A model generated the notes under the pieces. The model was not told where the DNA came from. It did no database searches and saw nothing but the letters and a program-made list of their open reading frames with translations. Positions 26,099-63,420 of a DNA stretch of 64,000 nt are shown in pieces; position 1 is the first letter of the stretch; each line of letters begins with the position of its first letter. The stretch lies in assembly GCA_002269645.1 (NCBI GenBank), contig NIVC01000654.1:313009-377008 (forward strand), written 5' to 3'. The stretch comes from Macrostomum lignano. Lineage: Eukaryota. The translations under genes and the position numbers were made by a program.

Positions 26099-26674
26099 TT
26101 AGGGTGGCTTCTGCTGGGCATGCCGGTTGAACCTGAATCGGCACCGGTGTCCTGCCTGTGGCCTCATAGGTCCTGGTTGATCACAGAAGAAACAGTGACC
26201 CGGTTTTGGCTCTGGTCTGGTTCCACTGAATCGGTGCCTCTTCCAATTCAGCATTGGTTGGGGTGTCTGCGGTACTGTCTTAGTCTCTAGGCTGATGTTG
26301 GTGAAAATTATAGTTAGAGTGACGAGGCACTCCATCAGCGCTTCCATGCCCTTCTTCTGTCTCTGTTCCTCACTCTCTCCGTACTCTTCAATAATTCTTT
26401 GGCGGATGTACTGATACTTGAAGTCTTCTTTCCTGTTGCTCAGTCTGCGCTTGACTCTTTCTGGGATGTTCAGATTCGCGAATAACTCTTTCTTGCACTC
26501 TTCCTCACTGAGCTTCTTATTCCTACAATGCTGCTCGAAGGTGATCAACCACTTGCGAATATCTTCGCCAGGGGTGTACTTCTCGAATCTTTCTTCTCTT
26601 GTCACTTTCCCTAGACAGTCTCGCAGTTGTTCTGCTAGCATGGCAATGGCATCATTAGCCTGGTTCTGATTCAT
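26099..26674 (-). CDS. Truncated Gag-like ORF
   Basis: First ORF after the PBS; capsid-like FEKYTPGEDIRKWLITFEQHC...; broken zinc knuckle CFFCDQPG. Confidence 0.65.
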   Translation of the reverse strand: MNQNQANDAIAMLAEQLRDCLGKVTREERFEKYTPGEDIRKWLITFEQHCRNKKLSEEECKKELFANLNIPERVKRRLSNRKEDFKYQYIRQRIIEEYGESEEQRQKKGMEALMECLVTLTIIFTNISLETKTVPQTPQPMLNWKRHRFSGTRPEPKPGHCFFCDQPGPMRPQAGHRCRFRFNRHAQQKPP

Positions 26675-29530
26675 CTTCTCTTGAAAAACTTTTTCAAATT
26701 TTTCTTTGGAATTCTTCTGTTCTGAGAATCTTTCTGAGTATTATTTTCTATTCTAACCTTGAGAGTTCTCGCCATTTCTCTAATCTTTATCGCTGCTACC
26801 AAGTTGTCGTAGGGCTTACTTCTGTCCTCCAACTATCCCACTATTGCCACCAAAGTTGTCGCAGGGCTGTTTTACCTCCTACTCTATCAATTTTAATCCC
26901 AACCACTGATACCAAGTTGTGCTAGGTTTTCAATTTTCCTCTGCTGATTCTGCCTTTGGTATCTCTAACTGTTTCTTAGAATTTCACTTAAATATACTGG
27001 TAGCGTCTTATGTATTAATCTGGTAGCGTTCTTAGTATATTAGTCTGGTAGCGTTCTTAGTATATGGCCTGAGCGGTCTTACTAGTTTATGTACTTTCTC
27101 TCTCCAGTCTGGGCATTACCGAGATTAGAGGGTCACAGCGATTACTCTTGGTATTACTCTTTGCATGAATCCCAATTGCAACCTCCAACCTTCTTTACAA
27201 TACTTTTAGAAATGAACAATGATATGAGAATGATTTATAGAACACGTTTTGAGCTTATAGCTATTGAACAAGTGTTGTCTTTTCTTGCCTACAATTCTCT
27301 TCCTTTTATACTAGTTGATCACGTGTATTTTAAATAAATTGTTACAAGTTGAAAATATTTTGAGTATTAAAACAACAAATATAAATTTCGCGCTAATTTG
27401 AAAAATGAGTTTATAAGAAACAAAAGGTACCACTATTACATATATTGCATGAATATTAAAAAATTATTATATAAAAATTTCAAGTTGATAAGTTTATCTA
27501 TTTAAAATGACAAAAGTTATGGCAAAATTCTCATTACTTTTGAAACACCCTTCATAATAAGCTTCAAACTTCATTGATTCTTTAAAAAATACTTTTTTAT
27601 TTCTACTAACTTATTAGCCTGCTAATCTGCTATACTCTAAAAATATTAAAATTTTGTTATTTCTATACATCATAAAAAATTGTTTTAAACAACTATGAAA
27701 ATTTCAGTAGGCCTAGGCTATATTAAATACTAAAAAGGTAGGCCTAGTATTAGAAAGTAAGTTGAACAAAATAAATAACCTTAAAATCTCAAGAATAGGC
27801 CCTACTAGGCCTAACCTCAATAAACTAGGCCTAGGGCCTACACAATGATTTAAAACTTTTTTTTAAATAACTCTTACTCTTTTTGAGATGCAATGCAAAG
27901 ACTTTTGATCACAGAAGAAACAGTGACCCGGTTTTGGCTCTGGTCTGGTTAATAACCAGATGCAATCTGTTTGCCAAAGTATTGCAAACAGCCATCCATC
28001 ATATTAGAATACTAGGCCTATTATATAAAATTAGAATTAATTAGTACTTTGGTTAGGCCTATGTATCTATCTAGTATGAAAATTGTATAGTAGTAGTATT
28101 AATACTTAGACCTAGACCTTAGACCTAGGCCTAGTATTAAAAATAATATAGTAGGCCTAATAAATTACTTTATAAATATATTAAATATACTATACTAATA
28201 TAGTATAAAAATAATCCCAGAATTTTACATCATAATAAGTAAAGAGAGAAAAGCAACCGTTAGAACAACTTGGAGTCAGCTTTGAGATTAGATAGAAGCA
28301 CTTTATTCATTCATTTGCGAATGAATGCACGAATGCGTCGATCGATCGTGCGTCGTTCATTTAAAGTGACATATATTTTAAATAAAAAACATTTTAAAAT
28401 AGGGTGAAATATACACAGCATTTGCTTTCTAGATTAAAAAACAAAGAGTTTTTTGTGAAACCACTTTTTGTCACTTTATCGCTAATATACTTCACAATAG
28501 CTAGTCGATTGTGCGCCATTTGTTTAAGATTACATTTGACTCGAAGTCGCGCGTGGATTCAAAACATTGGAAAGTGGAAATCGAATCTATTAAACTGGAT
28601 TTAAATCTAGAAGTTTCAGTCCGGCTTTAGACTAGAAAGTTAAGTTACGTTTTTTCTGAAATGGCAATAGCATCTATTGAATTTCAGAGTCAAGATTTAA
28701 CACTGTAGAAGCTGAGTGGCGGTAAACTGAGGGGAGTTACTTACTACTTTTAGTATGCCTTTCACTTGCATGGTCTGGGTTCAGATTACAGATCTGATCT
28801 CAACTTGTTAGCAAAGGTATTTAATTCAGATTATTAAATTGTAGAATAAAAATACTACATAATGTTCTATGCACTTTTCTCAATTTTTTGTTCTATATAT
28901 GAAATAATCCTTGTTGGGCCTATTAATAATTTTAAAGCAGCATTCTGGTAGGCCTAAGCCATCAAGGCTATTTTTCTAGACTAGACATACCTATCCATCC
29001 CTATTCCCTATTGTAATAAATAATCATTAGTGCAGATAGTGTCTAGCACAAATTTGTAGGCTTATCTAGTAGTATAGTATAGTCTACCCTAGTCTAGACT
29101 TACGCATATTAAGCCTTAAGGGAAGGGTGTAACTGGGTGTTTGCTATTTGGCAATCAATCTGGCATAGGGGGCCTAGTCTAGACCTTGGCTCCGATAGGG
29201 CTATTTTACTATCTATGGTTTTCACTTAATATAAATATTTGGCAAAAAAATAGTCATAAAGTCTTCAATTATTTTATATAAATAATGAAATAAGTTAGGG
29301 CCTAATAACTAAAGGATTCAACCCCACTTTAGTGAAGGAATTTTCGGCAAAAGTCAATAATGGCAAAAAAGACTTTTGCAATGACCATTTCATCTAAAAT
29401 TGATCCACTTTGGCAAAGGGTTATTTTTATTATTGGCAAAAGGCAAGCAATTATGCATTATATGTGTAGTAATTATAACAAATAAAAAAATTGGTGTCTA
29501 TAAAAAAAATAGAATGAACAAATTGAGCAT

Positions 29531-58926: not shown

Positions 58927-61900
58927 TTAGACGAACACTTTCCCAACAATGGTTCCATGCGAATCGACACTAATAGCCAAATTAGAATCCTTAACTGGAT
59001 AGGCTTTGTCTGGTAGAACTCGACCAATTAATACGCAATCAATTAGCCATAGCGGACACACTGACATAGCATTTAATCGGCAACAGCCAATGCATATTGG
59101 AGCTGATCGATAGCTATCAACAGTGCGACCTCCGGCTGCACGAATTAGCTTGAGCAACTGCGCCCGATCGAGGCCGGTCAACGATGGAGCAATGTACATT
59201 TCGGCAAGCTTAGCAAACAGTTTCGATCGCTTCTTCTCTTCAGTAGCAGTTAACGAAGAAGAACAATCATGCGCAACTCTAGAAGCCAAACTACTGGCCT
59301 GCTGAGCCACACTGTAGCTATTCATTGGCAGCCAGGAGCGTTTAGCTAAACTGTCAATGATCCAATCGATGCTAACTATAGGCACACTGTAAGCTAGTGC
59401 GGAGAGCACAGCCAATGTCCGCTTGGGTGGATTACAAGTCACTAGCACGGCTGTATTCGACGACAGCGTGTCCGACTGAAGAGGGAGTAAATAAAAACAA
59501 TATGATTTAATAAACGATAAAGCTACTAATAATAAGGGGGTCAATTACATTAGGACAGCTATTGCTAAAATTGCGACTCAAGAAAAAAACTATTTTAACT
59601 ATACGATCGTAAATTACGGAAGTTGCTATATTGCGACGATTGGCTCTTTTTGCAACTTTGAAATGCCATTGGTGGCGGCAATTCTAGCTGATGTTCCTAC
59701 TAATATAAATGCATTACTAATAAAAGTTCTAATAGGAAAGCAAGAACATACCGTCACCAGACTGTAAGTCTCCGGCATGCGACCCAATGCTCTTTGAACC
59801 GTACGACGCTGCTCGGAACTGAGACCGCTAACTGATAATAATGGCAATTGAAAATCGTCTAAAGATCGACGCGACGGTACAGAATTAGTACTAGTAGAGC
59901 TGCAAGCCTGGCTAGCCTGACTAATCTGGCTAGACGAACCAGTGCTATTCTTTTTGTTAGTTTTATCTTTGCTGGTGACATTGGTTTCTACGGCAGTTTT
60001 GCCAGTTGATAAGTTCCGTTGAGATCGGCGTCGCTTTAATGTTCGTTGAACTGGTTGGCTGACAGTCCTACTACTAGTAGTAGTAGTAGTAGCAGTAGAT
60101 GTAACACTCGATGCGTACGAAGAACTTTCAATAATAGACAAGCCTGACGCTGTAGTAGTAGTAGTAGTAGTTGCTGACTGCCTCCGACCGCTAATGCGTC
60201 GAACTGACGATGGAGGCGCAGGTGACTTCTTATTAGCACTACGAGGCTTGGTAGTTTTGTTTGTAGATTCACTATTGCAAGCGTCGAGAATGCCCATACC
60301 AGATGTGTCGGATGCTGTAGAAGCTTGCGAGCATGCGGCAGAAGCAGATGCATCTGTAGCAGCCTGCGGCGTTAACTTTGCACCGGACGATTCTTCGGCA
60401 ATGTCTAACAGAGTGACAGGATTGGCAGAAGCCGCAGTTTGTGCTTTTGATAACAAGCTGCGAGTTTCTTTATCTAGATTCGACTGACAGCGAATATCCC
60501 ACAAAGCAACGCGAGGAGACGAATTTCGAGCAACCAGCTGTTCCGAAACTTTTGAAGTTGTTGACAATGACATGACAGGCGTAGAAGTCTGTGCCGATGA
60601 AGCTTGAGGCGTTGCCGATGACGCTTGAGGCGTTGTCGAAGTAGGAGTAGTGGGGGTGTCAACGGCGGAAACGGGAATAACGGAAGAAGACGACTTTAAA
60701 GGCGCCGACGATCGATTCGCAATGGACTCGATACTGGCAACGTCAACATTAGCGGCAAATGTGATTCTACGAGACTGTCTCTGCTGCGAGTCTTTACTAG
60801 TGCTAGCCGATTGAAGAATCGACTTTCGAATCGACGAAGCCGTTGATAGCTGCGAACTAGAGGCTGCTTCTTGCGAGAGTGATCCAGTAGACGGAGGCGG
60901 CTTCTGCTGCTGCGCAGGAGGCGTTTCAAAGCGACCATTGGTTTTCAATATAGCCGCTAGGCCCGTCTGCAATTCGCCAAAATCGGATGTCATTACGGCG
61001 GGCAGCTGCCGAGCTACCAAGCAGTTGGGCTTAGTAGGACCAAAACGGAATCGATGATTATGACTAATATTTGAGACTTTTTTAACGGCACCAGTAGAAC
61101 CAGTTCGTTTCACATTGGTTCCGCTGCCGCCGCGACCGGGCAAATTGGCAACGACCTGACTAGGCGATGGAGCCATACACAATTTAGCAGCCTGATTGTT
61201 GCTTTTTTGAGCTAGCAAGCGTAGCACAGGCTTTGGAAATGCACGATAACAGGCTACCTGATCGGCTGTAGCCGGAGAATCGGTCGGCTCCGATAGTTCA
61301 TCGTCTTCAGCCGTATAGAGTCGGCGATATTTTGGCCGTTTATCTTGAGCCCCAGTTTTATGAGTCAAATTTATTGGCGACGAATCGTTTCCGATTGTTG
61401 CCGTTGGAGATGGCAATTCAATGCCGTCGAATGGCCGTCGAGGAGGCGGCACTTGCGACGGCGCCTTTGACGTGGTAGCTTCACTGGTAGCCAGATTAGC
61501 GACTGACTTTTCGTTTTGAAGCATCATTAAACTGCGCTTCTGCCGATTGTAGCGCCGCTGCTCGGCCGAACTAACGCAGGAAACAACGCGCGCAGAATCG
61601 TTCGGCGACTGCGAAGAACGCGATCGTCGAGATCGAGAATTCACAGGCGTCATTGCTGTCGTGTTTGATGAAGCTTTTAACGATAATGACTGACGGCGAC
61701 TGCTAGTTCGCCGACGAGCAACACCAGATGGGGTTGCATCGTCTAAATTACGCAATTCTACTGATGAGGCTTGCGAACTAGACAGAGAGTCGGAGAATGA
61801 TGCACAAAAATCGTCTGTCTCGGCGTTGTACAGACGACGCTTGCCAGGACGCGGGCGAAGTGGCACGGCAGCTGGCTGGGGAGGTGGCGCGGGTTCTGCT

Positions 61901-62946
61901 GCAGGTTCTGGCGCATGTTCTAGCGCAGGTACTGGCGCGGGTTCGGGTTCCAACGATAACTGAGGAACAGGCGTTGTCTCAACAACAATATTGGCTTCAT
62001 TTTCCTGAGCTGGCGTCTCGGGAGCAAGGATGACAGCAGGTTTCTTAGAATCCTCATCGACAGACTTTTTGTCGTCGCGTCCAACAACATCCCGATTTTC
62101 GTCACCATCTTCAACGTCGCTGCCAACAGATGACGAGTCGCTCAGACTGCCGTTGAATCGAATACCGTCGCGTCGCTGCTGGTCTAAACGTTCTTGGAGC
62201 TCTTTCATCGATGGCGGTGTCGTTGGAACGCGAAGCTTCACGGATAGATAATAATTATCGTTGAAATTGGCGTACTCCTCAGCCGACTTCTGGCAGGCAA
62301 TTTTCAACGAATCTACAACCGCAGTTTTCATGCGCTTTCTACGCAAACGATCCGCGCTAGACTTAAGCTCCTTCTCCGGGTCGAGTCCAGGCTGCATAAA
62401 CCGACGCCTCTGCTTGCGCAGCTGATTCAACAGAGGCGACGATGTGCCACCAGCTGAGTTGTCGTCCGCTGACCAAGCGCCAGCTGGGAGCAGGAACGGT
62501 TCGTGACTAACTTGACGTTTAGCTTTAATGCAGGCTAAGGGCCAGCTTACAGAGACCATTGGAATGCCGTGCTTAACAGCAAAATCGTGAGTCTTTTTTC
62601 TACCAGCACGATAGAGAATGTGAGTGACGCTTAAATTAACCCGGTCGCTAATGCTTGCGCCCAGACGGGTCATCTCTTCGGCAATGCCTTCGCTGCGATC
62701 TTCAATACCTTGACGAATTTCAACGTAGAATCTTACGCCGGTCAGCAGGCGACTAAGATCAAAGGGTTCCGCCGACTCATTATCCACTGACTTGGTTGCT
62801 TCTGACGTTTTTGCTACGGGAGTCGATGTTGGTGCGGCAGCTTCGGCGACTAGACCAGATGAGGAAGATTCTGAATCGGACTGGATTTCTATCGGGGCCG
62901 TAGCCCTGCCGTTTGTTACGGCGTGTGACCGCACAGCCGTGGCAGC
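58927..62946 (-). CDS. MCPH1: Microcephalin (one N-terminal BRCT and tandem C-terminal BRCTs); 5' exon(s) lie upstream of 62946
   Basis: Exons ~62946-59752 and ~59476-58927. N-BRCT LTGVRFYVE..LGASIS..SVTHILY..VSVSWPLAC followed by RRFMQP; C-BRCTs PKRTLAVLSALAYSVPIVSIDWI..SL and KLFA..MYI..LIRAAGG..WLIDCV. Confidence 0.85.
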
Positions 62947-62984
62947 CTGCAACATTAGGTATAGAACAAATAAACATATAAATT

Positions 62985-63420
62985 CGATTCTACAGGTTGC
63001 TTTGGGGCGATTTTACAGGTTGCTTGTGGGCTATTCTGCAGGATGATTGTGAGCGATTCTACAGGTTGCTTGTGGGCGATTCTGCAGGATGCTTGTGGGC
63101 GATTCTACAGGTTGCTTTAGGGCGATTCTACAGGTTGCTTGTGGGCGATTCTACAGGTTGCTTGTGGGCGATTCTGCAGGTTGCTTGTGGGCGATTCTGG
63201 AGGATGCTTGTGAGCGATTCTACAGGTTGCTTTAGGGCGATTCTACAGGTTGCTTGTGGGCGATTCTACAGGTTGCTGTAGGGCTATTCTACAGGTTGCT
63301 TTAGGGCGATTCTACAGGTTGCTTTTGGGCGATTGTACAGATTGCTTTAGGGCAATTCTACAGGTTGCTTGTGGGCGATTCTACAGGTTGATTGTGGGTG
63401 ATTCTACAGGTTGCTGGTGG
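62985..63420. repeat. 23-bp intronic minisatellite (GGGCGATTCTACAGGTTGCTTGT)
   Basis: Direct reading. Confidence 0.93.

Follow-up and report, generated by a model that had tools for sequence, protein, structure and literature searches.

Variable arrays of tRNA-Leu primer-binding sites and LTR ends in a Macrostomum lignano Ty3/gypsy family and their likely origin in reverse transcription

A family of LTR retrotransposons has, according to the standard model, one primer-binding site (PBS) and one fixed LTR end. The locus examined here lies in a window of 64,000 nucleotides of Macrostomum lignano DNA (contig NIVC01000654.1, positions 313,009 to 377,008 of the forward strand) and raises the question why an LTR should contain further copies of its own LTR-end and PBS junction. 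The initial annotation suggested that the LTR grew by repeated shifts of priming to a downstream PBS, leaving a record of earlier primers. Comparison of the window copy with family members and relatives leads to a different reading, to which we assign a probability of about 0.75: the 3′ end of the LTR is a variable array of modules, with a last module that differs between copies, and was likely built and reshuffled by reverse transcription.

The window element is a non-autonomous Ty3/gypsy LTR retrotransposon of about 5.14 kb on the minus strand, with direct TG...CA LTRs, a target-site duplication (TSD), a PBS and a polypurine tract. In window coordinates it is composed as follows.

27441..27444: TSD, TATA, 4 bp; partner copy at 22297-22300
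26805..27440, minus strand: 5′ LTR, 636 bp, TG...CA
26918..26927, minus strand: innermost LTR-end mimic, closing the LTR core
26857..26917, minus strand: unit B, made of linker, PBS-like 19-mer (26896-26914), spacer and LTR-end mimic
26805..26856, minus strand: unit A, made of linker, PBS-like 18-mer (26835-26852), spacer and LTR end
26783..26804, minus strand: junction PBS, imperfect, for tRNA-Leu AAG/TAG, with a 3-nt linker
26099..26740, minus strand: truncated gag-like ORF, 41% identical to gag residues 1-154 of a pol-carrying relative
24617..25015, minus strand: remnant of the pol C-terminus
23340..24269, minus strand: ORF3, 309 aa
22961..22974, minus strand: polypurine tract, adjoining the 3′ LTR
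22301..22960, minus strand: 3′ LTR, 660 bp, with one 24-bp repeat more than the 5′ LTR
22301..22423, minus strand: units A and B in the 3′ LTR, with PBS-like sites at 22331-22348 and 22392-22410

Read in the sense of the element, the 5′ LTR runs from the core end through a linker, the PBS-like 19-mer, spacer B, an LTR-end mimic, a second linker, the PBS-like 18-mer and spacer A to the true end, which is followed by a linker and the junction PBS. Unit A is terminal in the window copy and internal in other copies. A search of the window copy for protease (PR), reverse transcriptase (RT), RNase H (RH) and the core of integrase (IN) gave no match. For ORF3, considered as a possible env of the errantivirus type, no Pfam family was found; it is common to relatives and present in this copy, in which pol is deleted. 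An imperfect palindrome at 25119-25219 lies within a stretch of about 200 bp that is missing from the relative L109; a small element has probably inserted there. Positions 27905-27950, some 460 bp beyond the 5′ LTR, are an exact 46-bp copy of the internal segment 26177-26222. Elsewhere in the window, two long ORFs with BRCT domains occupy 58927-63012 on the minus strand (1128 aa free of stops); we take them to be TopBP1-like.

The three junctions noted at the outset are present, with LTR-end sequences starting at 26805, 26857 (+52) and 26918 (+61), and both inner units recur in the other LTR. The PBS-like sites were compared with a partial set of host tRNAs taken from the genome, which holds 15 distinct 3′ ends of Leu, Ser, Lys, Ile and Val tRNAs only. 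Among these 15 ends the best partner of all three sites is tRNA-Leu(AAG/TAG) with its CCA end, so that the expected match to host tRNA 3′ ends is found and the units can be described as copies of a tRNA-Leu PBS. The predicted pairing energies are −24.5 and −22.6 kcal/mol for the two inner sites and −16.7 for the junction PBS; a perfect site gives −39.0. For unit A the pairing window is offset by one base, which lowers the identity count and leaves the duplex nearly whole. In a strict motif test one such site was found in the LTR, against none in 2000 dinucleotide shuffles. Successive primers of different kinds, as implied by a record of earlier primers, are not what these matches indicate, as both window units point to the same tRNA-Leu(AAG/TAG). 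No perfect Leu-CAG or Leu-CAA site was present in the family loci screened with the partial tRNA set, and the use of different primers by different units was rejected on that ground. At L037-L039, tRNA-Ile(TAT) genes are linked to short genes resembling tRNA-Leu(TAA); both have an unusual form and are possibly SINE-like or foreign. Hexamers of the poly(A)-signal type occur inside unit B of the window element and inside unit G of the relative L127.

A further argument of the initial annotation was that the part of the LTR holding the units is identical between the two LTRs while the rest has diverged. The first 182 bp are indeed identical. The LTR pair differs by 16 substitutions in 636 aligned columns and one 24-bp indel; CpG sites hold 10 of the 16 substitutions, and only 4 of the 38 CpG columns fall in the identical part. 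With rates set by site class, an identical run at that end has P = 0.049 and a run of that length anywhere has P = 0.20. The identity is largely accounted for by CpG content and is not good evidence for the proposal; selection or conversion, considered as causes, were rejected for this reason.

Whether the units act as boundaries can be judged from other copies. These were collected by DNA and pattern searches of the genome and from fetched flanking stretches, a sample biased by the searches used. A parser resolved 129 distinct LTR records (65 solo, 33 5′, 27 3′ and 4 tandem), with the caveats that records with zero units are skipped, some decayed units are missed and haplotype duplicates may remain. 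At L126, and likewise at L446, elements in tandem share a middle LTR. The family arrays comprise at least 10 spacer types in 36 different array strings of up to 7 units, and the commonest array is a single well-formed unit (42 of 102 records other than 3′ LTRs). An exact 4-bp TSD flanks 37 of the 43 solo LTRs, out of 65, in which both ends were called. The last unit of these 37 is G in 12, A in 6, C in 6, H in 4, E in 3 and D in 2, with F, I, N and an unnamed unit once each, which makes 10 types, 9 of them named. Solo LTRs of this kind bear out the view that unit ends are genuine LTR boundaries. For the two inner ends of the window LTR the outcome is divided: unit B (26857) is terminal, with exact TSD, in three distinct insertions (7 of 30 loci), but the core end at 26918 is terminal in none of 20 matches.

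These boundaries bear on the simplest alternative, in which the arrays are ordinary tandem repeats produced by slippage, unequal crossing-over or gene conversion between LTRs and priming is irrelevant. Identical tandem units are found in L108, L456 and the metagenome contig L351, and minisatellites are abundant in the genome. Tandem repetition as such would not place LTR ends at unit ends with exact TSDs, give both LTRs of young copies one common array, or enrich exact tRNA copies at the junction. We consider this explanation quite improbable for the arrays as a whole, but the tandem identical units in L108 and L456 could stem from slippage or unequal recombination at the DNA level.

How units enter the LTR can be seen in full-length copies. 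Both LTR ends could be called in 28 of 36 family stretches, and the other 8 were dropped. In 25 of the 28, a single PBS lies between the 5′ LTR and the leader. In the other three (L111, L127 and L434, all with intact TSDs), the LTR end is separated from the last PBS by one or two extra units, which implies that an upstream junction set the boundary in these copies. A leader unit behind a shorter LTR, with confirmed TSD, is also found in L206, which belongs to another family. An exact 18-nt copy of the tRNA stands directly after the LTR end in 8 of the 28 copies (including L127 and L434) and at one of 46 inner junctions; for this manual tally Fisher's test gives p = 0.0014, with the reservation that the copies are kin and the samples not independent. 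The last PBS is also the better preserved one at the primer end, since at least 11 contiguous primer-end matches are kept by 5 of 8 variants of the last PBS and by 1 of 71 distinct inner variants. Insertions of 1-2 nt recur at PBS positions 5-8 in family loci and in L189, L195 and L449, and they also affect junction PBSs that set the LTR end.

The clearest case is the pair L434 and L435, whose internal regions are 96-98% identical and whose modules form the same row. The LTR of L434 stops behind the first module, that of L435 behind the third. The single tRNA-perfect site among the 46 inner junctions is in L435, where it lies within both LTRs. Reverse transcriptase copies the first 18 nt of its primer, and an exact inner copy is therefore the expected footprint of a PBS that was used and later absorbed. 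Absorption of a PBS into the LTR, as first proposed, is thus upheld by this copy, with the pair itself unpolarised. Copy C206 has the opposite asymmetry, with two units in the 3′ LTR and one in the 5′ LTR. A route of unit birth may be visible in L454, for which no TSD was called: it contains three units, each consisting of a perfect PBS and the last 16 nt of the LTR joined after a GGGAT match.

If absorption occurs, the array might be read as an ordered fossil record of primers, in which each unit is a former leader with its PBS, absorbed once. Apart from the absorption in L435, such strict serial growth is favored by L376, a metagenome contig outside the M. lignano genome in which perfect sites for first Leu-CAG and then Leu-AAG stand in series. 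Within the family a one-way chronology does not hold: seven adjacent pairs of units occur in both orders, some units are duplicated in tandem, and one 3′ LTR is longer than the 5′ LTR of its element. The family loci moreover lack a perfect site for another isoacceptor, and every unit needs an LTR end of its own, which plain absorption of leader sequence does not supply. Strict serial growth is on these grounds very unlikely.

A mechanism in which reverse transcription both builds and reshuffles the array can be outlined in four putative steps, all of which are read from DNA copies. In the first step, the LTR end would be set by whichever PBS primes. In the second, during plus-strand transfer, the 18-mer copied from the tRNA could anneal to the complement of another PBS, or at a short GGGAT match, in cDNA of the same or of a co-packaged RNA, by which modules would be added, deleted or swapped. 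In the third, progeny would prime at the most downstream PBS and so absorb the leader modules into both LTRs. In the fourth, the inner PBSs would decay at their primer-proximal end, favoring the last site. The array would then be mainly a self-renewing by-product, and a benefit to the element is possible. Some observations count against this scheme: in the window element, the predicted pairing with the tRNA is stronger at the inner sites than at the junction PBS, and the innermost mimic was never terminal in its 20 matches. Furthermore, the PBS after the LTR end of L111 is not tRNA-perfect, and the LTRs of L189 and L449 end at an imperfect downstream PBS despite a perfect one upstream. These three ends imply that complementarity alone does not choose the site.

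A function of the array could lie in the binding of the primer itself. Upstream of the array, the LTR shows a second resemblance to the same tRNA.

26999..27114, minus strand: antisense tRNA-Leu(AAG/TAG) body match, colinear; in the other LTR at 22495-22635

Its boxes correspond to the variable arm, the anticodon stem, the D arm and the 5′ strand of the acceptor stem. The acceptor box coincides with a repeat of 24-25 bp, present three times at 26999-27114 and three to four times across the LTRs. With regard to a tRNA-derived Pol III promoter of the Helenus/TRIMp3 kind, ARAGORN found no tRNA, and this split tRNA-Leu match is present in the LTR. For the region, which was picked by eye after inspection, the predicted duplex with the tRNA body beats 60 of 60 shuffles, with z-scores of −5.2 and −4.7 for Leu-AAG and Leu-TAG and −2.9 for the next best, Leu-CAG. 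None of 60 shuffles reached the match in L127, L197, L188, L200 and L199 either, with that of L199 not Leu-specific; the match is absent from L189 and L193 and weak in L198. Columns of the body match are conserved at 0.93 against 0.81 for intervening ones (34 columns each, 73 cores). In the modeled duplexes, contact between the primer tRNA and the element RNA could extend beyond the PBS to the body match.

It is conceivable that the array was selected as a multi-site platform for tRNA-Leu, where inner PBSs and body match would together capture, unfold or bridge the tRNA on the genomic RNA, along the lines suggested for Drosophila gypsy and Ty3. The specificity of the modeled pairing for Leu-AAG/TAG, its recurrence in relatives and the better conservation of its columns are consistent with such a role, as is a lone PBS seed upstream of the PBS in 96 of 105 metagenome stretches. 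The match is missing or weak in L189, L193 and L198, though, and the number and order of units vary freely, down to the one well-formed unit of the commonest array. We regard the platform as a tentative possibility that falls short of being probable. It is compatible with the preferred reading, which covers only the origin of the array.

Alternatively, the inner PBSs could be decoys that absorb 3′ tRNA fragments (3′-tRFs) which would otherwise block priming or translation, a proposal already made with the first description of the sites. In favor of decoys, 11 primer-end matches survive in the commonest last PBS, whose distal half is mismatched, at least 7 distal matches are kept by 21 of 71 inner variants, and 20 of 28 copies still have an imperfect PBS at the junction. 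Against this, additional sites in cis might just as well provide more targets, and related families have kept perfect inner PBSs. The argument from seed matches is further weakened by a preprint that, in its accessible part, reports seed-independent repression by tRFs (10.64898/2026.01.22.698655). A decoy function appears improbable.

The architecture extends beyond the family. Exact copies of the 18-mer number 666 in the genome, compared to none for a control, and among the first matches listed there are families with unrelated U3, about 57-61% identity in RT and the same layout. Units with perfect PBS lie inside both LTRs of L188-L191, L193, L194 and L196. In an RT tree built without named reference elements, ten RTs from the genome and a further M. 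lignano protein form one clade (100/99), to which the array-bearing families tested belong. The relatives have a CCHC gag and a pol that is closest to Ty3 among solved structures; in the searched region the pol of one relative is 100% identical to a protein labelled Macrostomum lignano. Relative L127 has the pol order PR-RT-RH-IN and a Ty3-like RT, as in Ty3/gypsy elements. Its IN follows RH, for which reason a strict Gmr1 assignment (IN before RT) was rejected; the 4-bp TSD and the use of tRNA-Leu would tentatively point to the Gmr1/Osvaldo group in the broad sense. The array is a real, clade-wide and dynamic LTR architecture.

Similar arrangements may exist outside the flatworm. In a metagenome collection, 105 stretches match the double-site pattern (L308-L412). 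A script flagged 9 of them as full units, which on inspection by eye are four arrays (L315, L351, L370 and L376), four with a seed only and one ambiguous case (L344). The marine contigs L315, L351 and L370 contain 2-5 tandem units of LTR end, perfect or decayed PBS and spacer. In the short contig L376 (positions 754-830) the unit with the perfect Leu-CAG PBS precedes the perfect Leu-AAG PBS, and this arrangement seems the closest approach to a two-primer record. The fetched flanks of these four gave no match to gag or pol, so that their nature as LTRs is deduced only from the form of the junctions. In the other 96 stretches a perfect tRNA-Leu PBS is preceded, at 50-79 nt, by a single PBS seed, which measures 9-12 nt in 94 cases and is possibly a conserved second tRNA site. 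Several stretches match integrase some 2.7 kb beyond the PBS, which suggests the Gmr1 domain order. In L367 a perfect PBS precedes another antisense segment resembling tRNA-Leu, together with its inverted copy, as if copying had overrun its usual stop. Among 21 matches from a scan of viral contigs, those inspected look like chance or simple repeats and gave no gag or pol match.

A bolder view combines these elements. The U5 of the whole clade could be a selected, recombining array of cassettes, which together with the body match would serve as a device for tRNA-Leu capture or tRF buffering, and reverse transcription would keep yielding new combinations of tRNA site and integrase end. We consider this doubtful; if true, the arrays on unrelated marine contigs, one of them with sites for two Leu isoacceptors, would represent a recurrent LTR design.

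A single living family here displays several working ends, intermediates held in the leader and absorbed primer sites side by side. It serves as a natural readout of primer-site choice, errors of second-strand transfer, the tolerance of integrase for different ends and the growth of LTRs, and as a natural test system for control by 3′-tRFs in a tractable animal. In practice, families that bear such arrays can have their PBS wrongly placed by callers of LTR boundaries and in consensus libraries.

A search of a library of open-access literature revealed no description of PBS/LTR-end arrays. Comparable situations exist for parts of the architecture. Engineered HIV and MLV vectors with two PBSs reportedly prime at either site with loss of the intervening sequence; these are laboratory constructs and are said to lack duplicated LTR ends. 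For M. lignano itself, Ty3/gypsy elements of the Mag, CsRN1, Gmr1/Osvaldo and Mdg3/Micropia groups have been described, with which the present elements share host, superfamily, the order PR-RT-RH-IN and a CCHC gag (PMC12801592). Neither 'PBS' nor 'tRNA' is mentioned in the accessible main text of that article and its bioRxiv version, and three family motifs sought in its supplements for a clade label gave no match. In Drosophila gypsy and yeast Ty3, tRNA-binding sites near both the 5′ and the 3′ end have led to the proposal of a tRNA bridge (PMC1635307). More than one tRNA-complementary site per element is a shared trait, with pairing only predicted in the window element; the gypsy and Ty3 sites are fixed and come without a duplicated LTR end, and the available part of that paper describes neither a variable array nor a moving boundary (PMC1635307). 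HIV-1 MAL has a partial PBS duplication and an extended tRNA-U5 pairing upstream of the PBS (PMC3185550), and both traits have a counterpart here, where the pairing of the tRNA body upstream of the PBS is a prediction. As far as the accessible account goes, the MAL duplication is a single 23-nt insertion downstream of the PBS, without LTR end and not in the LTR (PMC3185550). The Helenus and TRIMp3 elements likewise carry a tRNA-like sequence in the LTR, and Helenus has a 4-bp TSD in animals and is mobilised by Gypsy; according to the available text, it is a TRIM of small size in which the A and B boxes are conserved and the tRNA-like part is not complementary to the PBS (PMC10886601). Membership of the window element in this group was rejected in view of its 5.1-kb length with remnants of gag, pol and ORF3. 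Unlike Helenus, elements of the present family are 5-9 kb long and contain either coding remnants or an entire pol; their tRNA match, which has the isotype of their own primer, is broken into parts and runs antisense to the RNA of the element.
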